Part shown: positions 32,059-63,966 of the stretch, piece after piece
Layout of the letters: the number at the start of each line of letters is the position of its first letter
Position numbering within the stretch: the stretch's first letter is position 1
Origin: an uncultured Lachnospiraceae bacterium
GTDB lineage: Bacteria; Bacillota; Clostridia; Oscillospirales; CAG-272
Reading direction: 5' to 3'
DNA length: 64,000 bases
Assembly (NCBI GenBank): GCA_964568425.1
Contig: CAZMPO010000007.1
Coordinates: forward strand, 1-64,000
The notes under the pieces: model-generated
Seen by the model: the letters and a program-made list of their open reading frames with translations, nothing else
Databases searched by the model: none
What the model was told of the DNA's origin: nothing
Position numbers and translations under genes: made by a program

Positions 32059-33234
32059 TCAATCATACTTGCCGTTTATGATCTTTTCAAGCGCGGCGAT
32101 ATTCTTGTCGAAGTTGAGCGAGAGGACAGACATACCGTGTATCGTCGAATACTTCCAGCTTCCGTCAACGGGAAGGCGGTAGGATTTTATCTCATACGAA
32201 AGATATGTCGGTGCTTTTGTAAGGAGTGCGAGCATCTCATTGCTGCTTATATTGGTGGTGACCTGCGGCAAAAATTCGTCGAGCAGACCGCCTATCTCGA
32301 AGACGCTCAGCCCTTGCAGCTTGTCAAAGAGCAGATTCATGACCTTTCTCTGTCTGAGGGTACGCGCGAAATCACCGCCCTCGCCGTCGAGCGAGATATA
32401 TCGACAGCGGCAATAATTCAGCGCGTGTTTGCCGTCAAGGTGGACCATCCCGGGGGACGCCGAGCCTTCAAGACCGACGAACTCGATCTCAGCCTTTGAA
32501 AGGTTGACGTCAATGCCGCCCATATAATCGATAATATTCTCAAATCCCGAGAAATTTATCCTTACATACTGATCGATCTGAATGTTGAAATTTTCTTTTA
32601 TCGTTTTGGTCAAAAGTGACACACCGCCTGCGGCATACGCGGCATTTATGCGGTTATAGCTGTCAATGACCGGTATATGAAGGTAGATGTCGCGCAAAAA
32701 CGAGGTCATGATGATCTGCCCGGTCTTCTCGTTGATCGTCACGAGCATCATCGTGTCCGATCGACCGCGATCGCTTGCCGTGCGCGCGTCCGTGCCGATC
32801 AGCAGGATGTTTCTGATATGACCTCCGAACTGCATCCCCTTGTCGTTATCGATCTTCGGGGGCGTATACGGCGGTGCCGTCGTCGTCGCGGGGGGCGGCG
32901 TTGTTGTCGGAGCCTGACCTCCCGTCGTCGGACCGGTTATCGGAGCCTGATCACCGGTCGTCGGCAGATCGGTGATCGGGACGCTCGGCGGCACGATCGG
33001 CAGATCGGTGATCGGCAGATCGTCGGTCTCAAACGGAATGTCGTATATGATCTCCTCGGTCGTTGCCGTCGGAGGAATGTAATTTATCTTTCCGTAGTAA
33101 TGGCGGTAGATCGAGTAGGCGGCGATCAAAAGGCACAAAATGAGACAGATGATCACTATACCGATAATGGCAAGGATCTTTGCGATCTTTTTGCCGACGC
33201 TCTGTTTTTCTTTCTCTGATCTTGTTTTGCTCAA
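32059..33234 (-). CDS. LCP (LytR-CpsA-Psr) family protein
   Basis: N-terminal TM anchor, Pro/Thr-rich linker, LCP core ILLIGTDARTASDRGRSDTMMLVTIN. Confidence 0.8.
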   Translation of the reverse strand: MSKTRSEKEKQSVGKKIAKILAIIGIVIICLILCLLIAAYSIYRHYYGKINYIPPTATTEEIIYDIPFETDDLPITDLPIVPPSVPITDLPTTGDQAPITGPTTGGQAPTTTPPPATTTAPPYTPPKIDNDKGMQFGGHIRNILLIGTDARTASDRGRSDTMMLVTINEKTGQIIMTSFLRDIYLHIPVIDSYNRINAAYAAGGVSLLTKTIKENFNIQIDQYVRINFSGFENIIDYMGGIDVNLSKAEIEFVGLEGSASPGMVHLDGKHALNYCRCRYISLDGEGGDFARTLRQRKVMNLLFDKLQGLSVFEIGGLLDEFLPQVTTNISSNEMLALLTKAPTYLSYEIKSYRLPVDGSWKYSTIHGMSVLSLNFDKNIAALEKIINGKYD

Positions 33235-33415: not shown

Positions 33416-34354
33416 ATGGATCTCGGTCACGTTATACTTCACGCACTCGCCGACTCGGCGATGATACTTCCGATCCTGCTTCCGATCTGCTTCTTGATCG
33501 AGTGGATAGAGTACAAAAAATACACCGCGCTCGAAAATTCACGCCTTCTCTGCGGCAGGCTCTCGCCGCTTATCGGTGGGCTTTTCGGCTCGATACCCCA
33601 ATGCGGATTTTCTGTTGCCGCGACCGATCTTTTCGCAGGCGGCTCGCTCTCGGCAGGTGCGCTCGTCGCGGTCTACATTGCGACATCCGACGAGGCGATC
33701 CCGATAATGCTCTCGCGCCCCGACAGGCTTGCCGACATGCTCGCTTTGATACTAACAAAGCTTATCGTCGGAATTTTTGCGGGATACATCACAATGGCAC
33801 TGCTTGACAGGCATCGAGTCCACAAGCACGCCGATCACCGTGATCACGATCACGAGCACAAGCACGGGCACGAGCACGAGCACGAGGAGCACATCCACGA
33901 AAAGCCGCACTCGCACGCATCGATCGGCTGTTGCAAGCACGAGATCGAGGGCGGTCATTTTGAATGGAAGCATCCGATATTCCACTGTGCAAAGATATTT
34001 TTCTATGTTCTCTGTGTCAATTTCGCGATGGGGGCACTTATCGAGCTTGTCGGCGAGGACAGGCTTGTTATATTCCTCGGGCAGAGCGAATGGTTACAGC
34101 CGATACTTGCCTCTCTTGTCGGACTGATCCCGAACTGCGCATCCTCCGTCGTTCTGACCGAGCTTTACCTGCTCGATGGTCTGACATTCGGTGCGGTCGT
34201 CTCGGGGCTGTCGGTCAATGCGGGGCTTGGGCTGATGGTGCTTTACAAGGAGAATTCACGCATAAAAGAGAACATCTCGATCACCGCACTGGTCATGTTT
34301 TTCGGGCTTTTTGCGGGATATTTGCTCACTTTGTTCGCCCACATCGTCGCCTGA
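33416..34354 (+). CDS. polytopic membrane permease with His-rich cytoplasmic loop (putative metal-ion transporter)
   Basis: Two repeated halves each with IPxC(G/A)SS; central loop HKHADHRDHDHEHKHGHEHEHEEHIHEKPH. Confidence 0.5.
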   Translation: MDLGHVILHALADSAMILPILLPICFLIEWIEYKKYTALENSRLLCGRLSPLIGGLFGSIPQCGFSVAATDLFAGGSLSAGALVAVYIATSDEAIPIMLSRPDRLADMLALILTKLIVGIFAGYITMALLDRHRVHKHADHRDHDHEHKHGHEHEHEEHIHEKPHSHASIGCCKHEIEGGHFEWKHPIFHCAKIFFYVLCVNFAMGALIELVGEDRLVIFLGQSEWLQPILASLVGLIPNCASSVVLTELYLLDGLTFGAVVSGLSVNAGLGLMVLYKENSRIKENISITALVMFFGLFAGYLLTLFAHIVA

Positions 34355-52873: not shown

Positions 52874-55800
52874 TTATATTTTTTTGAAGTACTTTACAGC
52901 CGCCTCGAACATGCGAATGTCATACTCGCCGAGGACGTTTTTGTAAAGACCGCCACCGACACGCTCGCTGTGTCCCATCTTGCCGAGCACGCGTCCGTCG
53001 GGCGAGGTGATGCCCTCGATCGCGCACATCGATCCGTTGGGATTGAAGTCGACATCCATCGTCGCTCTGCCGTCGAGATCGACATACTGCGTCGCGATCT
53101 GCCCGTTTTCGGCAAGCCTTTCGATAAGTGCCTCGTCGGCGATGAAGCGACCCTCGCCGTGCGATATCGGCACATTGTAAACATCACCGACATTTGTCAG
53201 CGACAGCCACGGGCTCTTATTGGACGAAACGCGGGTGCGAACGATCCTTGACTGGTGGCGCGAAATGTTGTTAAATGTGAGCGTCGGGCAGTGCTCGTCG
53301 GTATCGATGATCTTACCGTACGGAACAAGTCCGAGCTTTATAAGTGCCTGGAAGCCGTTGCAGATACCGCACATCAGACCGTCGCGCCTCTCAAGAAGAT
53401 CTGTGACTGCCTCTTTGATCTGCGCATTTCTGAAAAATGCCGTGATGAACTTAGCCGAACCATCCGGTTCGTCACCGCCCGAAAATCCGCCGGGGATGAA
53501 TATCATCTGACACTCGGAGATCTTTTTTGCCACCTCGTCGACACTGCGCACAACATCGGCGGCGGTCAGATTGCGAATAACGGCAATTTCTGCCTCCGCT
53601 CCTGCAGCCATTACCGCGCGAGCCGAGTCGTATTCGCAGTTCGTGCCCGGGAATACGGGGATGAGCACCTTCGGACGTGCCACAGCCACCGCAGGTGCAA
53701 AACGGCTGTTTTCTGTCATTTTATATGTGAAATTCTCTGCTTTTTCCTCTTTTTCGCTCGTTTTTGTGGGATATACGTCTTCAAGCGTCGCACTGTTGAG
53801 CCTAAGCAGTTCATCGATGGTGACTCTGTCGCCGTCAAGATCGATCACGCCGTCATCGGTCGTATGACCGAGCTTCACCGTGCCGCGGACATTCACATCC
53901 TCGGTCAGCTCGGCGATGATAAAGCCCCAAAGTGAGGGCAGATGCCACTGTCCTTCGAGTCCCGAGTTGCTCTTAAAGCCGATGCCGTTTCCAAAGGACA
54001 TGTTCATGATGCCCTCGCCGATACCGTGCTCGACAGCCCACGCCGCCTTGACCTTGCCCTCTTTGCAAAGCTCATGGAAGGCATCCCATGATGCCCTAAG
54101 GCTCTCGGCACTCTCATCTGCCGCACCGAAGAGGTACACCGGGTGTCCTGCCGCCTTAAATTCGGGCGAGATGACCGCTCCTTTATCGATGGGAGCAATG
54201 GCGAACGAAATGAGCGTCGGCGGAACGTCCCTGTCAAGGAAACTGCCCGACATGGAGTCCTTGCCGCCGATTGCAGCCGCACCGAGCTCCAGCTGTGCAT
54301 CGAGTGCACCGAGCAGTGCCGAAAAGGGTTTGCCCCAACGGGTCGGCTCGGTTCTGAGCTTTTCAAAAAATTCCTGGAGCGACAGATACGCGCCGTGATA
54401 GTCCGCGCCTGTTGCGACAAGTTTTGCAACCGAGGTATAAACTGCGGCATGCGCGCCGATGTAGGGATCAACGCTCAGCAGATCGGGGTCACATCCGAAT
54501 GCCATAACACTTGCGGTATCGGTCGACTGCCCCGGGAGTGTCGGGAGCACTGCCGCCATCGACTGCGTCGGGGTGAGTTGGCGTTTGCCGCCGTAGGGCA
54601 TGAGCAGAGAGCCCGCACCGATGGTAGAGTCAAAACGCTCGACAAGTCCTCGACGGCTTGCTGTATGAAGATCGGACGCCATTTCGCGCAGATCGCCGTA
54701 AAGTGCCCTCGAAAGTGCCGAAAGGTCTTTCTTATCGATCTTGACCGACGCGTGCTTTGTCGCGCCGTTCGTGTTCAGGAAATCGCGTGAAAGATCGGCG
54801 ATGACAGCACCGTTCCATGTCATGACCATGCGTGCCTTTTTTGTTACAACGGCGACGCGATACGCCTCGAGATTTTCGCTCTCGGCAAGGGATATGAATT
54901 TATCGGCATCCTCGGGTGCGACGACGACCGCCATGCGCTCCTGAGACTCGGAGATCGCAAGCTCGGTGCCGTCAAGACCGTCATATTTTTTGCGAACAGC
55001 GTCAAGATCGATGCGAAGTCCGTCGGCAAGCTCGCCGATGGCGACCGAAACGCCGCCTGCGCCGAAGTCATTGCAACGCTTGATCATGCGCGTGACCTCG
55101 CCGTTTCTGAAAAGACGCTGGATCTTGCGCTCCTCGGGGGCGTTGCCCTTCTGAACCTCGGACGCCATGGTGGCAAGCGACTTCGCATCGTGGCTCTTGG
55201 ATGAGCCTGTCGCACCGCCGATACCATCCCTGCCCGTTCTGCCGCCGAGCAATATTACCACATCACCGGGCGCAGGGCACTCGCGGCGGACATTGCATGC
55301 AGGCACTGCGGCAACGACCGCGCCGCACTCAAGTCGTTTTGCAACAAATCCGTCGTGATAAAGCTCAGCCACATGTCCCGTGGCAAGCCCGATCTGGTTG
55401 CCGTAGGACGAATATCCTGCGGCTGCCGTTCTGCATATCGTTCGCTGAGGCAGTTTGCCGGGGACAGTCTCGGAAAGAGGTGTTCTCGGATCTCCCGCGC
55501 CGGTAACGCGCATTGCCTGATGAACATAGGCGCGTCCCGAGAGCGGATCGCGGATGCAACCGCCGATACAGGTCGCCGCGCCGCCAAATGGCTCGATCTC
55601 GGTCGGATGGTTGTGCGTCTCGTTCTTAAACATGAGCAGCCAATCCTCGTCCCTGCCGTCGACCTTGGCGTTAACATGGATGGAGCAGGCGTTGATCTCC
55701 TCGCTCTCGTCAAGCTCGGGCAGAAGTCCGCGCTTTTTCAGCACCTTTGTGCCGATGGTCGCGATGTCCATCAGTGTCTGCGGACGCTTTGCCGCTCTTT

Positions 55801-56578
55801 CCTCTCCGTACACCTCAACACGCGCCTTGAGATAACGTTCATACGCCGCCTGTACTGCCGCATCGTCGATCTTCACCTCGTCGATGTGGGTCGAGAAGGT
55901 GGTGTGGCGGCAGTGATCCGACCAATATGTGTCGACCACGCGAATTTCGGTGATCGTCGGGTCGCGATGCTCGCTGTCGATAAAATAATTCTGCAAAAAC
56001 TTAAGATCGTCAAGATCCATGGCAAGTCCGAGATCATCGAGCAGTGCGGAAAGCTCTCCCTCGTCCATTTTCGTAAATCCATCGATGGTGGCGACGCGCT
56101 CGGGAGCGGTGTGTTTTGCCTCGAGCGATGTCGGCAGGTCGAGGGACGCCTCGCGCGACTCGACCTTGTTTATGATATGCGCACGAATGGCGTCGAGATC
56201 GCCCTCGGCAAGTGTTCCGTAGAGGGCATAGACCTTCGCCGAGCGCACGATCGGACGCTCACCGCCCGAGATTATCTGTATGCACTGTGCCGCGCTGTCG
56301 GCTCTCTGATCAAACTGACCGGGGAGCGGCTCGACCGCAAAAAGCCGATCGGCATCGGTCGGGAGAGAGGTAGATGTGATATCGAGCTGAGGCTCCGAAA
56401 ATACGGTCTTTACCGCATAATCAAAGAGTTCGGGCGTGATATTCTCAACATCGTAGCGATTGAATATTCTGACCGATTTGATGCCGCAGATCCCGAGAAG
56501 TCCCGAGATATCGGACATAAGCGATGCCGCCTCGTGGGCAAGCTCCTTCTTTTTTTCTACATATATTCTATAAACCAT
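52874..56578 (-). CDS. purL: phosphoribosylformylglycinamidine synthase (single-chain large form with C-terminal glutaminase domain)
   Basis: 1234 aa; PurL AIRS-like repeats plus C-terminal PurQ-like GATase domain (GICNGFQ). Confidence 0.95.
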   Translation of the reverse strand: MVYRIYVEKKKELAHEAASLMSDISGLLGICGIKSVRIFNRYDVENITPELFDYAVKTVFSEPQLDITSTSLPTDADRLFAVEPLPGQFDQRADSAAQCIQIISGGERPIVRSAKVYALYGTLAEGDLDAIRAHIINKVESREASLDLPTSLEAKHTAPERVATIDGFTKMDEGELSALLDDLGLAMDLDDLKFLQNYFIDSEHRDPTITEIRVVDTYWSDHCRHTTFSTHIDEVKIDDAAVQAAYERYLKARVEVYGEERAAKRPQTLMDIATIGTKVLKKRGLLPELDESEEINACSIHVNAKVDGRDEDWLLMFKNETHNHPTEIEPFGGAATCIGGCIRDPLSGRAYVHQAMRVTGAGDPRTPLSETVPGKLPQRTICRTAAAGYSSYGNQIGLATGHVAELYHDGFVAKRLECGAVVAAVPACNVRRECPAPGDVVILLGGRTGRDGIGGATGSSKSHDAKSLATMASEVQKGNAPEERKIQRLFRNGEVTRMIKRCNDFGAGGVSVAIGELADGLRIDLDAVRKKYDGLDGTELAISESQERMAVVVAPEDADKFISLAESENLEAYRVAVVTKKARMVMTWNGAVIADLSRDFLNTNGATKHASVKIDKKDLSALSRALYGDLREMASDLHTASRRGLVERFDSTIGAGSLLMPYGGKRQLTPTQSMAAVLPTLPGQSTDTASVMAFGCDPDLLSVDPYIGAHAAVYTSVAKLVATGADYHGAYLSLQEFFEKLRTEPTRWGKPFSALLGALDAQLELGAAAIGGKDSMSGSFLDRDVPPTLISFAIAPIDKGAVISPEFKAAGHPVYLFGAADESAESLRASWDAFHELCKEGKVKAAWAVEHGIGEGIMNMSFGNGIGFKSNSGLEGQWHLPSLWGFIIAELTEDVNVRGTVKLGHTTDDGVIDLDGDRVTIDELLRLNSATLEDVYPTKTSEKEEKAENFTYKMTENSRFAPAVAVARPKVLIPVFPGTNCEYDSARAVMAAGAEAEIAVIRNLTAADVVRSVDEVAKKISECQMIFIPGGFSGGDEPDGSAKFITAFFRNAQIKEAVTDLLERRDGLMCGICNGFQALIKLGLVPYGKIIDTDEHCPTLTFNNISRHQSRIVRTRVSSNKSPWLSLTNVGDVYNVPISHGEGRFIADEALIERLAENGQIATQYVDLDGRATMDVDFNPNGSMCAIEGITSPDGRVLGKMGHSERVGGGLYKNVLGEYDIRMFEAAVKYFKKI

Positions 56579-56618: not shown

Positions 56619-57893
56619 TCAGGCTTTATCACCAAGAGCCGCGAGTGCCCTTTTTCCGATATCATGTCGGCAAAAGCTGTTGTCAAATTTTATCCTTGAC
56701 ACCTTTTCGTAGGATGCCTTGATCGCCTCACAAAGCGTCGGTCTGACGCTCGTGACGCCGAGCACGCGTCCGCCGTTTGTTACAAGGTGTCCGTTTGACA
56801 GAGCCGCCCCTGCGACATAAACGGAGTCCGCTATGTCATCGGGGATCTCTATCTCAAAGCCCTTTTCGTAGGAGGCAGGGTAGCCGTTTGATGCCATGAT
56901 GACACAGCAGGCGGACTCATTCGAAAATTCGACCGACACATCGGACAAGGTCTCGTTTGTCACCGCCATCATGATGCTAAGCAGATCGGTCTTCAAAAGA
57001 GGGAGCACGACCTGAGTCTCGGGGTCGCCGAATCGGCAGTTGTACTCGATCACCTTCGGTCCGTCCTTTGTGATCATGAGGCCGAAATAGAGGCAACCCT
57101 TGAACGTCCTGCCCTCCGCTCTCATCGCTTCAATGGTCGGGACAAATATCTTTTTCATGCACTCATCAGCCACGGCGTTTGTATAATACGGGTTCGGTGC
57201 GACCGTGCCCATTCCGCCGGTGTTAAGTCCGCGATCGTTGTCAAGTGCACGCTTATGGTCCATCGACGAGACCATCGGAACGACCGTCTTGCCGTCGGTA
57301 AAGGAGAGCACCGACACCTCGGGACCTTCGAGGAACTCCTCGATAACGATCTCCTTGCCGCTCTCGCCGAATTTTCTGTCCTTCATTATCGAGACGACCG
57401 CATCCCTTGCCTGATCTCGCGTCTCGGCGATTATGACACCCTTTCCGAGTGCCAGCCCGTCCGCCTTGATGACGGTCGGCAGAGGTGCGCTCTCGACATA
57501 GGCAAGTGCCGCCTCGGGATCCGAGAAGACCTCGTATCGAGCGGTCGGAATGCCGTATTTTTTCATAAGATCCTTCGAAAAGACCTTACTGCCCTCGATT
57601 ATCGCCGCCGCCCGTCTCGGGCCGAAGCAGGGTACGCCGACCTCTTCGAGACGATCGACAAGCCCGAGGACAAGCGGGTCATCGGGCGCAACGATCGCGT
57701 AGTCGATCTTGTTTTCGACCGCGAACGAAACTATGGCATCAAGATCGGTCGCCTTTATATCAACGCACACGGCATCAGCGGCGATCCCCCCGTTCCCGGG
57801 CAGAGCAAACACCCGCTCGACCGATCTGTTTTCTCTGATTTTCTTTATAATGGCGTGCTCTCGCCCACCGGAACCGATTACTAATAAATTCAT
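56619..57893 (-). CDS. purD: phosphoribosylamine--glycine ligase
   Basis: MNLLVIGSGGREHAI start, ATP-grasp. Confidence 0.95.
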   Translation of the reverse strand: MNLLVIGSGGREHAIIKKIRENRSVERVFALPGNGGIAADAVCVDIKATDLDAIVSFAVENKIDYAIVAPDDPLVLGLVDRLEEVGVPCFGPRRAAAIIEGSKVFSKDLMKKYGIPTARYEVFSDPEAALAYVESAPLPTVIKADGLALGKGVIIAETRDQARDAVVSIMKDRKFGESGKEIVIEEFLEGPEVSVLSFTDGKTVVPMVSSMDHKRALDNDRGLNTGGMGTVAPNPYYTNAVADECMKKIFVPTIEAMRAEGRTFKGCLYFGLMITKDGPKVIEYNCRFGDPETQVVLPLLKTDLLSIMMAVTNETLSDVSVEFSNESACCVIMASNGYPASYEKGFEIEIPDDIADSVYVAGAALSNGHLVTNGGRVLGVTSVRPTLCEAIKASYEKVSRIKFDNSFCRHDIGKRALAALGDKA

Positions 57894-57920
57894 GTTTTAC
57901 CTCCTTGGGAAGGGGAAATT

Positions 57921-57987
57921 AGATACAAGATACGAGATACAAGATACAAGATACTTATTTGTGCGGACTTGGTTGTTCAGCTTTCTG
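57921..57987 (+). repeat. five tandem heptamers (AGATACA/AGATACG/AGATACT) plus left copy of a 47-bp direct repeat
   Basis: 57921-57955 heptamer array; 57941-57987 AAGATACAAGATACTTATTTGTGCGGACTTGGTTGTTCAGCTTTCTG repeated at 58384-58430 with 1 mismatch. Confidence 0.8.
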
Positions 57988-58011
57988 TTTGTGGGTGAAT
58001 TTTTGAGCTTA

Positions 58012-58362
58012 TTATTCTTGCACCGTTTTTATGGCTGAGGTCAACATGGAGATCAGATCTTTGCAATCGCTGATTATGGAATTGAAAAGATTGGTCGGGA
58101 TGTAGTCGGATGAATGCAAAAGTTCAAGCCAATAGATGGTCTCAGCCGCTTCTTTTCGTGCTATTTGCAGTTTTGCGACAAAATCCTTTCGACTGCTCCC
58201 ATAGACCGCTTCCGTAATATTAGCACCAATACTCGTCCCACTGCGCAGTATTTGATTTGACATAACATACTCCCGATGTTCCTTGCAAAGGTACTTGTAC
58301 AGACTGACAATCCGCTTTGCAAACTCCATACTTTTCGCCTTCAACAAACTATCAACAGACAT
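58012..58362 (-). CDS. four-helix-bundle protein (23S rRNA intervening-sequence protein family)
   Basis: EFAKRIVSLYKYL...RSGTSIGANITEA...ARKEAAETIYWLEL typical of the TIGR02436/PF05635 family; inserted between purD and purH. Confidence 0.7.
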   Translation of the reverse strand: MSVDSLLKAKSMEFAKRIVSLYKYLCKEHREYVMSNQILRSGTSIGANITEAVYGSSRKDFVAKLQIARKEAAETIYWLELLHSSDYIPTNLFNSIISDCKDLISMLTSAIKTVQE

Positions 58363-58377
58363 AAAACCCCCGAAGTA

Positions 58378-58430
58378 AGATATAAGATACAAGATACTTA
58401 TTTATGCGGACTTGGTTGTTCAGCTTTCTG
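58378..58430 (+). repeat. right copy of the 47-bp direct repeat with partial heptamers
   Basis: Sequence identity to 57941-57987. Confidence 0.8.
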
Positions 58431-58515
58431 CATGCAGAGAGATAATACAAAATACAAAAAATACAAGCTATTATAAAATATCGGACGCTGAAGAAAGAAG
58501 CTTTAGCGAACAAAT

Positions 58516-58549
58516 ATCTTGTATCTCGTATCTTGTATCTTGTATCTCC
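58516..58549 (-). repeat. inverted copy of the heptamer array (AGATACA/AGATACG x4-5)
   Basis: ATCTTGTATCTCGTATCTTGTATCTTGTATCTCC is the reverse complement of the 57921-57955 array; abuts the purH stop codon. Confidence 0.8.
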
Positions 58550-59734
58550 TCAGTGGTGGAACAATCTCATTCCGGTAAATGCCATGGCTATGTTGTATTT
58601 GTTGCAGCAATCGATGACTATATCGTCGCGGATGGAGCCGCCGGGTTCGGCTATGTAGGAGACGCCGCTGCGTTTGGCGCGCTCGATGTTGTCGTCGAAC
58701 GGGAAGAATGCATCCGAACCGAGGCTGACACCGTCCAGTGTGTCAAGATATGCCCTCTGCTCGTCGCGTGTAAACGGTTCGGGACGAGTGGTGAAATATT
58801 TCTGCCAAATGCCGTCCGCGCAGACATCCTCTTCATTTTGATTGATATATCCGTCGATCACGTTGTCGCGATCGGCTCTGCCCATGCCCTCCTTGAATGG
58901 GAGCGAGAGGACCTTGTCATGCTGACGAAGCTGCCATGTATCCGCTTTCGTGCCTGCAAGACGCGTGCAATGAATACGCGACTGCTGACCCGCGCCGACG
59001 CCGATCGCCTGACCGTCGTATGCATAGCAGACCGAGTTGGACTGAGTATATTTAAGAGTGATCAGCGAAATGATAAGATCGCGCACGGCACTCTCGGGGA
59101 GCTCCTTGTTTTCGGTCACAACATTTGAAAGAAGCTCTGCGTTGATCGCAAAATTGTTCCTTCCCTGCTCAAAGGTTATGCCGAAGACCTCTTTGGTCTC
59201 CTTTTCGGCAGGGGTGTAGTCGGGATCGATCTTTACGATGTTATAATTGCCGCGACGCTTGCCCTTTAAGATCTCGAGTGCCTCGGGCTCGTAACCGGGG
59301 GCGATAATGCCGTCGGACACCTCTCTTGCGATAAGCTTTGCGGTCGTCACATCGCAAACATCCGACAGCGCGATCCAGTCGCCGAAGGAGGACATGCGGT
59401 CGGTTCCTCTTGCTCTCGCATAAGCACAGGCAAGCGGCGAATCGTCAAGACCCTCGATATCATCGACAAAGCATGCCTTTTTCAGCTTTTCGGGAAGCTT
59501 CGTTCCGACTGCCGCCGAGGTCGGGCTGACATGCTTAAACGAGGTCGCCGCGGGCATACCGAGCACCGCTTTAAGCTCTCTGACGAGCTGCCATGAATTG
59601 AATGCATCAAGGAAGTTGATATAGCCGGGTCTGCCGCAAAGGATCTCGATCGGGAGATCGCTGTCGTCCTTCATATATATTCTCGAAGGCTTTTGGTTGG
59701 GGTTACAGCCGTATTTCAGCTCAAATTCTTTCAT
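58550..59734 (-). CDS. purH: AICAR transformylase (PurH formyltransferase domain only, no IMP cyclohydrolase/MGS domain)
   Basis: 394 aa matching the C-terminal AICARFT part of bifunctional PurH. Confidence 0.85.
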   Translation of the reverse strand: MKEFELKYGCNPNQKPSRIYMKDDSDLPIEILCGRPGYINFLDAFNSWQLVRELKAVLGMPAATSFKHVSPTSAAVGTKLPEKLKKACFVDDIEGLDDSPLACAYARARGTDRMSSFGDWIALSDVCDVTTAKLIAREVSDGIIAPGYEPEALEILKGKRRGNYNIVKIDPDYTPAEKETKEVFGITFEQGRNNFAINAELLSNVVTENKELPESAVRDLIISLITLKYTQSNSVCYAYDGQAIGVGAGQQSRIHCTRLAGTKADTWQLRQHDKVLSLPFKEGMGRADRDNVIDGYINQNEEDVCADGIWQKYFTTRPEPFTRDEQRAYLDTLDGVSLGSDAFFPFDDNIERAKRSGVSYIAEPGGSIRDDIVIDCCNKYNIAMAFTGMRLFHH

Positions 59735-59745
59735 TTCGGTGCTCC

Positions 59746-60462
59746 TTATTTGTTTTTATTTACTATTCTTGACTCGAAATTGCCGGTTTCGAGGTCTATA
59801 TATCTCACAAAAAGCGAGACCTTGTTGTCGGCGTTGAGACCGTCCCAGATAAGATCGGTCATTTCGTCAATGCCGAGATCGGGGAGCTCAAGTGTCTTCG
59901 GCTCGCCCTCGAAGCTCGGGAGCGGCGATCCGTCGCCCATATAGGTATGGATGAACTTCGCTCTGCCGCACGCGGGCGTATTGTAGGCAAATGTATATCT
60001 CTGACAGGATGTCGGGTCACCCTCTGCCGATTTGATGATCGAGAGTGCGAAATTCATAAGTCCCGACTCGTGATGAACGATGCCCGAGATGCGCGGAGTG
60101 TAGTTCGGCGCGTCATCCTCAAATTCGCGAGTGCGCAGTGCCTGCTCGAAGGTCATCTGCCTGTCCATCAGCTCGTAGATAGTATCGGTCTGATCGCCGT
60201 TGGTGACGATCGTTTTGTTGCCGAGCACGCGAACGGGTGCGTAGATGATGAGGTGGGGATCGACCATCTTGGACGGGTCGAACGCCTCTGTTCTTATGCC
60301 GTCACCCTCGGTCACGAAAACGCGATTGCGGCTGTTTTCGCTTCTTCCCATGATAAAATAAGCGATTATCGCCGACTTTCCGTCGACACTTCTGCCGACC
60401 ATTATTCCTCTGCCGTGATAGGACAGAGATCTGAGCTCACCCTCAAGATTTCTTATTTCCAT
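59746..60462 (-). CDS. purO: IMP cyclohydrolase, PurO-like
   Basis: ~238 aa in the pur operon directly upstream of the AICARFT-only purH; PurO-like size and position. Assignment is inferential. Confidence 0.6.
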   Translation of the reverse strand: MEIRNLEGELRSLSYHGRGIMVGRSVDGKSAIIAYFIMGRSENSRNRVFVTEGDGIRTEAFDPSKMVDPHLIIYAPVRVLGNKTIVTNGDQTDTIYELMDRQMTFEQALRTREFEDDAPNYTPRISGIVHHESGLMNFALSIIKSAEGDPTSCQRYTFAYNTPACGRAKFIHTYMGDGSPLPSFEGEPKTLELPDLGIDEMTDLIWDGLNADNKVSLFVRYIDLETGNFESRIVNKNK

Positions 60463-60478
60463 TTTGCATTCCCTTCGA

Positions 60479-61105
60479 TTAATTATTAATGTATACCCGA
60501 CCATCCGTGATGGTCAGCTTGTCGTCGCAGAAAAGCCTTACCGCCATCGGAAGTATCTTCCATTCGGCATTTTCCATTATTCGGCGCTGGAGCGTCTCGG
60601 GGGTATCATCGTCCATGACCTCGACCGCCTTTTGAAGTATGATCGGACCTGCGTCGCACTCGGCGGTAACAAAATGCACGGTCGCACCCGATACCTTGAC
60701 TCCCTTTGCAAGGACCGCCTCGTGAACATGAAGTCCGTAAAAGCCCTTGCCGCAAAAGGATGGAATGAGCGCAGGATGGACATTTATCATCCTGCCCGAA
60801 AACGCATCGCAGACACTGCCGTCGAGGATGGTCATAAATCCCGCGTAGACAACAAGATCCGCGCCCTCCAAGGTCAGCCTGTCACACATCGCTCTGCTGT
60901 AATCGGCGACAGAGGCGTACTCTGCGCGAGGGAGGACTATCGTCTTTATCCCTGCGTTTTTTGCTCGCTCAAGGGCATAAACGCCCGATTTTGAAGAAAT
61001 AACGGCGGTTATTTTTCCGTTTCCGAGCTCACCGCGAGCCTCTGCATCAATAAGTGCTTGAAGATTGGTCCCGCCACCCGAGACCAAGACAACGATTTTT
61101 TTCAT
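60479..61105 (-). CDS. purN: phosphoribosylglycinamide formyltransferase
   Basis: MKKIVVLVSGGGTNLQALID, HVHEAV... formyltransferase motifs. Confidence 0.9.
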   Translation of the reverse strand: MKKIVVLVSGGGTNLQALIDAEARGELGNGKITAVISSKSGVYALERAKNAGIKTIVLPRAEYASVADYSRAMCDRLTLEGADLVVYAGFMTILDGSVCDAFSGRMINVHPALIPSFCGKGFYGLHVHEAVLAKGVKVSGATVHFVTAECDAGPIILQKAVEVMDDDTPETLQRRIMENAEWKILPMAVRLFCDDKLTITDGRVYINN

Positions 61106-61120
61106 AATATTATACACCAA

Positions 61121-62161
61121 TCAGTCGATTATAACGCCCTCGTCGGAGCGAACGACACTGCCGATGATGTAGGCGTCCTCGCCTGCCTCGCGAAGTATCG
61201 AGAGTGCCTTTTCGGCATCCTCTGCGGCGACCGTGACGCTCATGCCGACGCCCATGTTAAAGGTGTTGAACATATCGTGATCGGATATGCCGCCGACCTT
61301 TCTGATAAGCTCGAATATCGGGAGGATCTTAAGAGATGCTCTGTCGACCTTTACCGAGTATCCGTCGGGCAGCGCGCGCGGAATGTTTTCGTAAAATCCG
61401 CCGCCGGTGATGTGGGATACCGCCTTGACGCTCACCTTTTCAAAGAGCGCGAGCATAGATTTAACATATATCTTGGTCGGCGTAAGAAGCACCTCGCCGA
61501 GCGATCTGCCGTCAAGCTCGGGGACGGGCGCGGACAGATCGGCGTTTTCGATATCAAACACGCGGCGAACGAGCGAAAATCCGTTCGAGTGCACGCCCGA
61601 GGATGCAAGCGCAATAACGACATCGCCCTCTTTTACGCTGTTTTTGTCGAGTATTTTCTTTTTGTCAACAACACCCGTGCTGTAGCCCGCCAGATCATAG
61701 TCGTCCTCAGCCATAAGCCCGGGGTGCTCGGCAGTCTCGCCGCCGATAAGCGCACAACCCGCGCGGACGCAACCCTCGGCAACACCGCCGACGATCGAGG
61801 CGATCTTTTCGGGAACATTCTTTCCGCAAGCAATATAATCAAGGAAGAAAAGTGGCTTTGCGCCGCAACAGATTATATCATTGACGCACATGGCAACGCA
61901 GTCGATACCGATCGTATCATGCTTGTCCATCAGCATGGCAAGTCTTATCTTGGTGCCGACACCGTCGGTTCCCGATACGAGCACAGGCTCGTCGATGCCA
62001 CCAAGGTCAAGCCCGAAGCATCCGCCAAATCCGCCTATATCATCAAGGCAACCGGCGGTCTTCGTTCTTGCAATGTGACCCTTCATCAGCTCTACCGAGC
62101 GATAGCCTGCGGTAATATCGACGCCCGCCTTTGCGTAGCTGTCCGATCTTGAATTTTTCAT
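61121..62161 (-). CDS. purM: phosphoribosylformylglycinamidine cyclo-ligase (AIR synthetase)
   Basis: YAKAGVDI start, AIRS N- and C-terminal domains. Confidence 0.95.
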   Translation of the reverse strand: MKNSRSDSYAKAGVDITAGYRSVELMKGHIARTKTAGCLDDIGGFGGCFGLDLGGIDEPVLVSGTDGVGTKIRLAMLMDKHDTIGIDCVAMCVNDIICCGAKPLFFLDYIACGKNVPEKIASIVGGVAEGCVRAGCALIGGETAEHPGLMAEDDYDLAGYSTGVVDKKKILDKNSVKEGDVVIALASSGVHSNGFSLVRRVFDIENADLSAPVPELDGRSLGEVLLTPTKIYVKSMLALFEKVSVKAVSHITGGGFYENIPRALPDGYSVKVDRASLKILPIFELIRKVGGISDHDMFNTFNMGVGMSVTVAAEDAEKALSILREAGEDAYIIGSVVRSDEGVIID

Positions 62162-62207
62162 AGTAAAGTTTTCCTTTCGGTAAATTATAGGCGTTCTTCA
62201 ATTGATA

Positions 62208-62520
62208 GCGTTTTGACGTTTCGCTCTGCGAATGCCGTCCCTCGGACGGCAAGTCAAAACTTCGGCAAATTACAGCCCTTCTGTATTTGATGGCGTTTTG
62301 ACGTTTCGCTCTGCGAATGCCGTCCCTCGGACGGCAAGTCAAAACTTCGGCAAATTACAGCCCTTCTGTATTTGATGGCGTTTTGACGTTTCGCTCTGCG
62401 AATGCCGTCCCTCGGACGGCAAGTCAAAACTTCGGCAAATTACAGCCCTTCTGTATTTGATGGCGTTTTGACGTTTCGCTACGCGAATGCCCTCCCTCGG
62501 AGGGCAAGTCAAAACTTCGG
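62208..62520. repeat. four tandem copies of an 85-bp hairpin-forming repeat between purM and purF
   Basis: Copies start at 62208, 62293, 62378, 62463. Each carries nested inverted repeats GTTTTGAC...GTCAAAAC and CCGTCC-ctcg-GACGG. Copy 4 has the compensatory variant CCCTCC-ctcg-GAGGG. Confidence 0.9.
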
Positions 62521-62521
62521 T

Positions 62522-62550
62522 AAAGGATAAAAGCTTCGCTTTTATCCTTT
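62522..62550 (-). terminator. perfect 13-bp hairpin overlapping the purF stop codon
   Basis: AAAGGATAAAAGC-ttcg-GCTTTTATCCTTT. Confidence 0.4.
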
Positions 62551-63966
62551 ACCGTTCCAGCAATAGGTACAAAGATCGCATTCGGGGAGACCGATGGCTT
62601 TGATTATGCCCTCAAGCGATTGGAACTCAAGGCTGTCAAATTTGAATTTCTTGCAGATCTCGCGGCGAAGTGCTCTGCCGCGCTCGGTCCTGCCGTCCGA
62701 ATACTCGTCGATATGCTCAAATCCGACCTCGCCCTCAAGCTCCATGATCACGCGGCGCGCGATCAGCTCCATGTTGTTTGTCGAACGCGAGAAATTCAGA
62801 TATTTGCATCCGAACATGATCGGCGGACACGCAGAACGCATGTGGACCGATTTTGCTCCGTTTTCATAAAGGAAATCGACCGTTTCCTTAAGCTGTGTAC
62901 CGCGGACGATCGAATCATCCACAAAAAGCAGATTTTTGTCCTTTATGTAATCATGAACGGGTATCTGCTTCATTTTTGCGACCTTGTTACGCTCGGTTTG
63001 GTTGTTCGGCGTAAAGCTTCTCGACCAGGTGGGCGTATATTTGATAAAGGCGCGCGCGAATTTTTTGCCGCTCTCGTTCGAGTACCCGATCGCATGCGGC
63101 GTTCCCGAATCGGGGACGCCTCCGACATAATCGACCTCGGCGTCAAATCCGTTTTCTCGGTCGTATGCCGCCATGATCTCGCCGTTGCGGCAACGCATCG
63201 CCTCAACATTGACGCCCTCGTATGTGGCGGTCGGGTAGCCGTAATAGCTCCACAAAAAGGCACAGACCTTCTTCTTTTTGCCGGGCTCTTTAAGCCTTGT
63301 CAGCGTGTCTGGCGTTATCTCGACGATCTCGCCCGGACCGAGCTCATATTCGTCGGTATATCCGAGTTTTTGGTAAGCGAACGACTCAAAGGACACCGCG
63401 TATCCGCTCTCGCCCTTGCCGACAAGCAGCGGCAGTCTGCCGACCTTGTCGCGTGCGGCGATTATCGAGCCGTCACTTGTCAGCAGCAGTATCGAGCATG
63501 TGCCCTCGATAATGCTCTGTGCATAGGCTATGCCGCTTGCAAAATCTTCCTTTTGATTGATAAGCGCGGCAACAAGCTCGGTCGTGTTGATCGCACCGCC
63601 GGTCATCGCGTCAAAATAGCCGCCGGGAAGATCGAGACAGAGTTTTATCAGCTGCTCGGCGTTGTTTATGATACCGACAGTCGATATCGCGTATGTGCCG
63701 AGTTTTGATCTTATCAGCATGGGCTGAGGGTCGGTGTCGCTGATGCAACCGATCGCAGACGTGCCCTTCATTTCCTCGAAAATATGCTCGAATTTCGTGC
63801 GAAACGGCGAATTTTCGATGCTGTGTATCTTCCTTTGCAGACCTATCTCTTTATCGTATGCCGCAAGTCCGCCGCGGCGAGTTCCGAGGTGCGAATGATA
63901 ATCGACTCCGAAAAAGACGTCAAGGAGGCAATCTTCTCTTGACGCAATTCCAAAAAATCCTCCCAT
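62542..63966 (-). CDS. purF: amidophosphoribosyltransferase-like protein (PurF homolog; N-terminus MGGFFG lacks the Ntn Cys)
   Basis: PRTase motifs TGVPDSG and LLFVDDSIVRGTQ; C-terminal Cys cluster CxxC; reading frame is open to the window edge upstream. Confidence 0.8.
   Translation of the reverse strand: MGGFFGIASREDCLLDVFFGVDYHSHLGTRRGGLAAYDKEIGLQRKIHSIENSPFRTKFEHIFEEMKGTSAIGCISDTDPQPMLIRSKLGTYAISTVGIINNAEQLIKLCLDLPGGYFDAMTGGAINTTELVAALINQKEDFASGIAYAQSIIEGTCSILLLTSDGSIIAARDKVGRLPLLVGKGESGYAVSFESFAYQKLGYTDEYELGPGEIVEITPDTLTRLKEPGKKKKVCAFLWSYYGYPTATYEGVNVEAMRCRNGEIMAAYDRENGFDAEVDYVGGVPDSGTPHAIGYSNESGKKFARAFIKYTPTWSRSFTPNNQTERNKVAKMKQIPVHDYIKDKNLLFVDDSIVRGTQLKETVDFLYENGAKSVHMRSACPPIMFGCKYLNFSRSTNNMELIARRVIMELEGEVGFEHIDEYSDGRTERGRALRREICKKFKFDSLEFQSLEGIIKAIGLPECDLCTYCWNGKG

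Follow-up and report, generated by a model that had tools for sequence, protein, structure and literature searches.

Within enterobacterial operons, for example between malE and malF, REP elements and their BIME clusters form tandem hairpin units near stop codons, and their copy number varies among strains. They have been proposed to protect mRNA 3′ ends and to affect translation of the upstream gene, and we propose the same action for the spacer of 85-nt units described here. In Firmicutes, intercistronic stem-loops set segmental mRNA stability, as in B. subtilis cggR-gapA processing, where a stable structure stands between two cistrons of one transcript beside an A/U-rich single-stranded stretch. 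The MIRU-VNTR loci of Mycobacterium tuberculosis (discussed in PMC12548453 and PMC5056196) are 40-100-bp tandem repeats between operon genes with strain-polymorphic copy number, and pneumococcal BOX elements are modular, strongly folding intergenic repeats with an internal module of variable tandem number, boxB, whose copy-number variation serves MLVA typing (PMC3049150, PMC1315331). At quasipalindromes, template switching turns an inverted copy of adjacent sequence into a perfect stem and makes paired changes and small indels in one event (PMC8794818, PMC7202029, PMC7954356). All of these systems share the traits named here with the purF-purM junction of an uncultured Lachnospiraceae bacterium, which we describe below.

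A spacer of four 85-nt units between purF and purM

The window, the whole 64,000-nt stretch of DNA analysed here, ends in a purine-biosynthesis cluster in which every gene lies on the minus strand (Table 1); the order of the operon is purE-purC-purF-spacer-purM-purN-IMP cyclohydrolase-purH. The purF-purM spacer is 380 nt long, and TRF reported a single array there (62176-62524, period 85, 4.1 copies, 95% matches, score 607), by far the strongest tandem repeat in the window. The first-pass annotation had described four tandem 85-bp units filling almost the entire spacer, which was borne out by the TRF period and copy number, by a covariance model that finds four full units, and by the 340 of 380 nt that these units take up. 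Read along the sense (minus) strand, the spacer consists of a hairpin at the purF stop (hairpin 1), the four 85-nt units U4 to U1, and the purM ribosome-binding site directly after U1. Two other tandem repeats, a 36-nt unit present 3.1 times with 78% matches (32907-33015) and the hexamer CACGAG repeated seven times (33845-33886), lie in or beside long ORFs (32059-33234 on the minus strand and 33416-34354 on the plus strand).

Table 1. Positions of the pur genes, the repeat units and the associated structures in the window
Feature	Position	Strand	Remarks
purL	52874-56578	minus	
purD	56619-57893	minus	
purH	58550-59734	minus	
IMP cyclohydrolase	59746-60504	minus	PF07826
purN	60479-61120	minus	
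purM (AIR synthase), downstream gene	61121-62161	minus	346-aa ORF; Pfam AIRS and AIRS_C on identical proteins
purM translation-initiation region	62162-62180	minus	Shine-Dalgarno AAAGGA 62177-62172; ATG 62161-62159; read from sequence
Right copy of 9-nt direct repeat TTTACCGAA	62176-62184	minus	end of U1 and purM leader
Unit U1, adjoins purM	62265-62181	minus	core as U2/U3; terminal-type tail into purM ribosome-binding site
Stem P1 (in U1)	62260-62253 with 62217-62210	minus	GUUUUGAC / GUCAAAAC, 8 bp
Stem P2 (in U1)	62251-62233	minus	UGCCGUCC-GAG-GGACGGCA, 8 bp, 3-nt loop
Stem P3 (in U1)	62232-62220	minus	UUCGC-NNN-GCGAA, 5 bp
Unit U2	62350-62266	minus	identical to U3
Unit U3	62435-62351	minus	inner stem CCGTCC/GGACGG; P3 loop AGA; internal-type tail with its own small hairpin
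Unit U4, adjoins purF	62520-62436	minus	inner stem CCCTCC/GGAGGG; P3 loop GUA; internal-type tail
Left copy of 9-nt direct repeat TTTACCGAA	62516-62524	minus	end of hairpin 1 and start of U4; direct-repeat family at 85-nt spacing
Hairpin 1	62518-62554	minus	perfect 17-bp stem, 62518-62534 with 62538-62554; GAA loop, apex GCGAAGC
purF stop codon TAA	62544-62542	minus	
purF (amidophosphoribosyltransferase), upstream gene	62542-63966	minus	474-aa ORF; homologues bear the same name

A 51-nt core occurs three times exactly in the array (0 expected in shuffles). U4 differs at four positions: a G->C / C->G double change and two substitutions in the loop of P3. Between cores, U2-U4 carry the same 34-nt stretch, the internal unit junctions read TTTGCCGAA, and the 29-nt tail of U1 departs from the internal tails at 8 of 29 positions. 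With U2 and U3 alike at every position, the exact copy number of four in the window depends on the source assembly. Logan contigs from two further samples (L004, L005 and L002, with an identical purF or purM protein, and with identical purF DNA in L004 and L005) break inside the array and confirm both the U4-type and the U1-type ends; as independent contigs, they support at least three units.

A consensus promoter/terminator scan found no sigma-70-like promoter in the spacer and no canonical terminator-like site in 61900-62800, and ARAGORN found no tRNA or tmRNA. In the close relatives L040 and L039, the leader upstream of purE, a region outside the window, carries a canonical TTGACA-17-TGgTATAAT promoter, a canonical intrinsic terminator and a ZMP/ZTP riboswitch (RF01750; L040 1335-1421, 65.9 bits; L039 1522-1607, 62.9 bits). 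Given a spacer with neither promoter nor canonical terminator and a promoter upstream of purE in relatives, the spacer must belong to the pur transcript.

Folding of the unit and of the hairpin at the purF stop

In each unit, the 51-nt core adopts a compact, Y-shaped three-way junction of the stems P1, P2 and P3, with 1, 0 and 2 unpaired nucleotides at the junction. As RNA, the unit has a minimum free energy of about -30 kcal/mol (z = -3.6), and the three-way junction is also the centroid structure; single-unit alleles from relatives adopt the same fold, internal units carry an extra small hairpin in the tail, and the RNA fold of the whole spacer reaches z = -8.7. The nested hairpins that had been predicted for the unit were therefore found by folding, with two corrections: the inner stem is an 8-bp helix closed by a GAG triloop (P2) rather than CCGTCC-ctcg-GACGG, and a second inner hairpin, P3, had been missed, which makes the unit a three-way junction. 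As single-stranded DNA, the unit folds with a dG of about -23 kcal/mol on both strands. Since the unit contains Watson-Crick pairs only and its two DNA strands fold equally readily, an RNA and a single-stranded DNA structure are indistinguishable for the unit itself.

Hairpin 1 overlaps the purF stop with perfect pairing, as had been noticed, and its stem is 17 bp long instead of the 13 bp first given. Its left arm includes the last purF codons and the TAA stop, and its right arm repeats this coding sequence in inverted orientation, the inverted repeat being 100% complementary (RNA dG -25.1 kcal/mol, z = -7.7). The left arm is homologous to the ancestral end of purF, for which outgroups read ...AACGGGAAGGAATAA and ...AACGGGAAAGAGTAA. 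Hairpin 1 is fully paired in five of five allele types, an allele that has lost most of the unit included, and it contains two compensatory pairs, both in one lineage (19 of 500 shuffles match). One of its changes, from C-G to U-G, retains pairing only in RNA of the sense strand. After hairpin 1 comes the short U run GAAGUUUUG; in the ZTP expression platform of a close relative, the stem is followed directly by UUUUAU. An intrinsic terminator was rejected, with 0 sites in 61900-62800 and GAAGUUUUG after hairpin 1.

The spacer could instead act as DNA, by offering regulator sites, either the 19-bp palindrome TGCCGTCC-GAG-GGACGGCA or the PurBox-like TTTRCCGAAG junctions, or an internal purM promoter. 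The palindromes are perfect, each junction has a CCGAA core with A/T-rich flanks that is similar to the PurBox of Firmicutes, AWWWCCGAACWWT (10-11 of 13 matches), and U1 contains a TATAAT 19 nt upstream of the purM start codon region. We consider such a DNA-level element very unlikely, however, because the spacer is without a sigma-70-like promoter and its TATAAT has neither a -35 element nor a TG extension, as opposed to the canonical operon promoter in L040; moreover, an operator changed in both half-sites would not regain binding, and the replacement of C-G by U-G in hairpin 1 agrees with pairing as RNA. The idea of a PurBox bound by PurR was dropped, as the operon is governed in close relatives by the ZTP riboswitch with no PurR-type leader and the spacer is promoter-less.

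The array varies in copy number within a narrow clade

Orthologous loci were gathered by exact-protein look-ups and by purM and purF homologue searches. The top purM match, P0001 (491 aa; L006 538-2013, ENA ERZ1029115), was set aside as irrelevant, lying on a contig that is GC-rich and bears no relation to the focal species; it has repeated AIRS and AIRS_C Pfam matches and may represent a partial internal duplication or a mis-assembly.

L001 and L003 (about 99.4% nucleotide identity to the window) contain one unit, in which P2 reads CCGTCC...GGAGGG with a G·G mismatch. One unit with perfect stems is present in L007-L011 (about 94-96% identity), and at least three units, with P2 as CCCTCC/GGAGGG, surround a 100-N gap in L012, the same locus as L031 (MAG GCA_964582375.1, uncultured Lachnospiraceae bacterium; about 88-94% identity). 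In L040-L045, from six samples and with purF 3.4% diverged, the spacer has shrunk to 75 nt (e.g. L040 4175-4249), which keeps hairpin 1 and only GAGTTTTGACTTGCC-TTTGG-GCATT of the unit. The purF tree places this remnant clade inside the unit-bearing lineages, which makes the remnant a derived deletion, and the loss of most of the module in a clade seen in six samples indicates that the junction structure is dispensable. The deletion allele and a multi-unit allele co-occur in one sequencing cohort (SRR141607xx). Further away, purF and purM overlap or lie 3 nt apart (L018 and L019-L024; about 73% identity, measured on L019), while a sister lineage (L039, L017 and L025, purF about 85% identical) carries an unrelated insert beginning (AGATACG)n. 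Every allele, and the sister lineage too, keeps the purM translation-initiation region.

Strains whose purF differs by 0.6-6% thus have a deleted remnant, one, at least three or four modules at the same locus, and the units are head-to-tail and within the 10-100-bp range, so the array is a bacterial minisatellite (VNTR) that is specific to this locus and has a structured repeat unit. The unit is young and confined to one narrow Lachnospiraceae clade and one locus.

In the sister lineage (L039 4426-4457; L017 1-103; L025 1-86), the purF stop is followed by three to four copies of AGATACG, and the purM side ends ...GAGATATCTTGTTTCCCATCCCC before the ribosome-binding site, resembling the right end of a heptamer-bounded cassette that precedes purD in the window. 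That cassette takes up about 630 bp of the minus strand (57911-58550), in the gap that separates the stop of purH (58550) from the start of purD (57893). It encodes a 116-aa PF05635 protein (23S_rRNA_IVP, four-helix bundle; 58012-58362, Pfam E = 1.8e-29) and is bounded by 36-61-nt terminal inverted repeats of heptamers, (AGATACA)x5 after purH and the inverted (TATCTTG)n twice, each inverted array being preceded by a 33-nt direct repeat. Its appearance is that of a small insertion, possibly mobile, placed exactly at an operon junction. With different inserts in two lineages, the purF-purM junction seems to be a recurrent insertion site.

Origin of the array and constraint on its core

Copies of the 9-nt repeat TTTACCGAA flank the module of single-unit alleles exactly 85 nt apart, and at this period they are a likely substrate for slippage or unequal recombination; the array accordingly is likely to grow and shrink by replication slippage or unequal recombination. 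The hairpins, for their part, appear to have arisen, and to stay perfect, at least partly by short-range template switching, since the right arm of hairpin 1 is the inverted purF 3′ end and since in L007 two paired changes in hairpin 1 are accompanied by a 7-nt insertion. A single short-range template switch can yield paired changes together with a small indel (PMC8794818, PMC7202029, PMC7954356). The two perfect states of P2, CCGTCC/GGACGG and CCCTCC/GGAGGG, and the natural intermediate CCGTCC/GGAGGG would fit the same process.

These observations also lend themselves to the main rival explanation, in which the whole spacer is a functionless by-product of mutation: palindromes made beside the purF stop by template switching, slippage of the hairpin-prone DNA between the 9-nt repeats and a drifting copy number, with gene separation as the only effect. 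The range from remnant to four modules among strains with 0.6-6% purF difference, the persistence of the deletion allele in two subclades, the inverted purF end in hairpin 1, the coupled changes of L007, the G·G intermediate and the fast divergence of the internal tails at 8 of 29 positions all agree with it, and there are documented cases of template switching that creates and 'compensates' hairpins (PMC8794818, PMC7202029, PMC7954356). We regard this explanation as possible, though on the whole unlikely, on account of the pattern of substitution described below.

Covariation contributes little to the question. The counts of constraint and covariation rest on about four independent lineages, all metagenome assemblies: across eight distinct units, 98.6% of stem cells are paired and one pair covaries, and 46 of 500 column shuffles score as well. 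This pair, in P2, is CG in three units, GC in three and an unpaired G·G in one allele (L001/L003). Both arms of the inner stem of the purF-proximal copy are indeed changed together, as the first-pass annotation had pointed out; its further step, to take this as covariation evidence of selection, is not supported by a single pair that 46 of 500 shuffles equal. One template switch can change both sides of a palindrome without any selection (PMC8794818, PMC7202029). Paired changes of this kind are weak evidence for a selected RNA structure, so the covariation argument is a weak one here.

Other evidence gives some signs that the unit core is under purifying constraint. The 56-nt core differs from that of the L007 lineage at 2 of 56 positions, against 15.6% at the 4-fold sites of purF and purM (binomial P = 0.005), and from that of the L012 lineage at 4 of 56, against 23.5% (binomial P = 0.001). 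Variable columns make up 3 of 42 paired and 16 of 43 unpaired positions (4 of 14 in the unpaired core and 12 of 29 in the tail; Fisher P = 0.0013); the P3 loop is AGA, GUA, GGA or AAA on an invariant P3 stem. Recent recombination as the cause of core conservation was excluded, because flanking coding bins show normal divergence. A mere by-product would leave unexplained that the core has diverged 3-5 times less than 4-fold sites, that stems vary less than loops and tails, and that hairpin 1 is perfect in every allele, the deletion allele included; template switching alone gives no lower substitution rate.

No dispersed or catalogued family was found for the unit

In the 64-kb window, blastn-short, nhmmer and the covariance model R1 with filters off detected the four units described and nothing else, and R1 matched only orthologous spacers when run on all 45 fetched loci. 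A strict pattern, GTTTTGACTTGCCN{20,40}GTCAAAAC, was used to scan larger collections: among 185,579 GTDB species genomes it gave nine matches, of which eight were chance and the only real one was the same locus in a sister-species MAG; four matches in JGI metagenomes were all chance, and there were none in viral contigs. Plasmids and phages gave no blastn match. Rfam 15 produced 0 matches over the whole window at gathering thresholds, and one 23-nt chance match in the spacer at E <= 10.

The route suggested at the outset, Rfam followed by a new covariance model across related genomes, has therefore shown a unit whose stems are conserved in a narrow clade only and that corresponds to no Rfam family. 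Absence of the unit and its stems from related genomes, or copy-number variation with no structural covariation, had been expected to speak against the proposal; the outcome is mixed, with unit and stems conserved within the narrow clade, and copy number varying with almost no structural covariation.

These searches bear on the idea that the unit is a member or remnant of a mobile or dispersed family (REP/BIME-, BOX- or MITE-like), which would have entered with a 9-bp target duplication, TTTACCGAA, before being multiplied in place. A single unit is flanked by 9-nt direct repeats, the spacer is absent in more distant relatives, the same junction of the sister lineage carries another insert bounded by heptamer arrays, and a cassette of that kind lies between purH and purD in the window. 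Such an origin is nevertheless quite improbable in our view, as three methods found no second copy in the window, only this locus was matched in the GTDB representative MAG (by a strict pattern in incomplete MAGs, so that a few diverged copies are possible), no plasmid or phage matched, and the unit, read from its sequence, has no terminal inverted repeats. A MITE was rejected in particular, since 9-nt direct repeats are present but the unit ends are not mutual inverted repeats. Of the three suggestions first made for the array, the REP-like element survives in a loose sense, as the behaviour is REP-like with no dispersed REP-type family, whereas a structured sRNA or an attenuator found no direct support in the form of an Rfam family, canonical terminator or promoter.

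An attenuator responding to a ligand or a protein, akin to a riboswitch or PyrR, might control read-through from purF to purM. The conserved three-way junction follows a strong hairpin and the short U run GAAGUUUUG, which also serves as the 5′ strand of P1, so that the two structures could in principle compete. We think this extremely unlikely: a junction with almost no unpaired nucleotides (1, 0 and 2) offers no plausible ligand pocket, there is no Rfam match even at E <= 10 and no canonical terminator, and a tuned switch would not tolerate a module that is deleted in one clade and multiplied in others.

Several other candidates were also discarded. A likeness to hammerhead ribozymes (CGAAAC...GUC) came without a CUGAUGA core or an Rfam match, the core and inverse-core motifs did not fit an integron attC site, a CRISPR array was excluded by 'spacers' that are identical in U2-U4 and by the single unit in many strains, and the small ORFs that span the units shift in frame and have no counterpart in single-unit alleles.

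A possible folded spacer in the pur mRNA

Taken together, the analysis leads us to a reading of which we are about half persuaded, namely that the array is a young, lineage-restricted, VNTR-like intercistronic mRNA spacer whose folded blocks uncouple purF from purM and act as a barrier to decay. Hairpin 1 and the Y-shaped modules would form stable folded blocks in the pur mRNA and would break the ancestral translational coupling of purF and purM. As an exonuclease barrier, they would protect the 3′ end of the purECF segment, and they might also protect the 5′ end of purM and the later genes after endonucleolytic cleavage in the A/U-rich tail. Alternatively, the blocks would mark out a processing site in that tail, in the manner of REP/BIME elements and intercistronic stem-loops of Firmicutes. 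The balance of expression between the two operon halves would be fixed in this way, whereas the precise module count is probably almost neutral.

A bolder version, which we hold to be rather improbable, makes the Y module a cis-acting RNA, for instance a site for an RNase or an RNA-binding protein, and its copy number a heritable, fast-mutating 'rheostat' of the purECF:purMN-H ratio, born de novo from coding sequence by template switching in one species cluster.

If the modules affect mRNA decay or translation, the alleles (0.4, 1, at least 3 and 4 modules) would constitute a natural allelic series for the tuning of gene ratios by intercistronic structure, and the locus would offer a dated case in which inverted and tandem duplication turned coding sequence into a structured RNA element. 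For practical purposes, the array can serve as a strain-typing marker and should be recognised as an assembly break point, at which MAG and Logan contigs break or carry gaps.

Relation to described repeats

REP elements, dispersed in hundreds of copies and moved by RAYT transposases, share a conserved GTAG, whereas the 85-nt unit is restricted to one locus, forms a three-way junction and has no sequence similarity to REP; its cores, as read from the sequence, do not start with GTAG. MIRUs are likewise dispersed, over about 40 loci, and contain short ORFs in phase with the flanking genes; the unit, in contrast, has a length not divisible by 3, no conserved ORF and a single Firmicute locus. BOX elements, with more than 100 dispersed copies and an A-B-C order of modules, have no sequence relation to it. 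Compared with structures of the cggR-gapA type, the one here is repeated and variable in number. Template switching differs in being a mutational mechanism and not a functional class, and it explains the origin and perfect pairing of the hairpins but not the below-neutral divergence of the core. In behaviour, the array is closest to REP/BIME clusters, MIRU-VNTR loci and variable boxB modules, although it is not dispersed and has neither an in-phase ORF nor the A-B-C module order; it is of a known kind, the hairpin-containing intergenic tandem repeats, rather than a new class of regulator.
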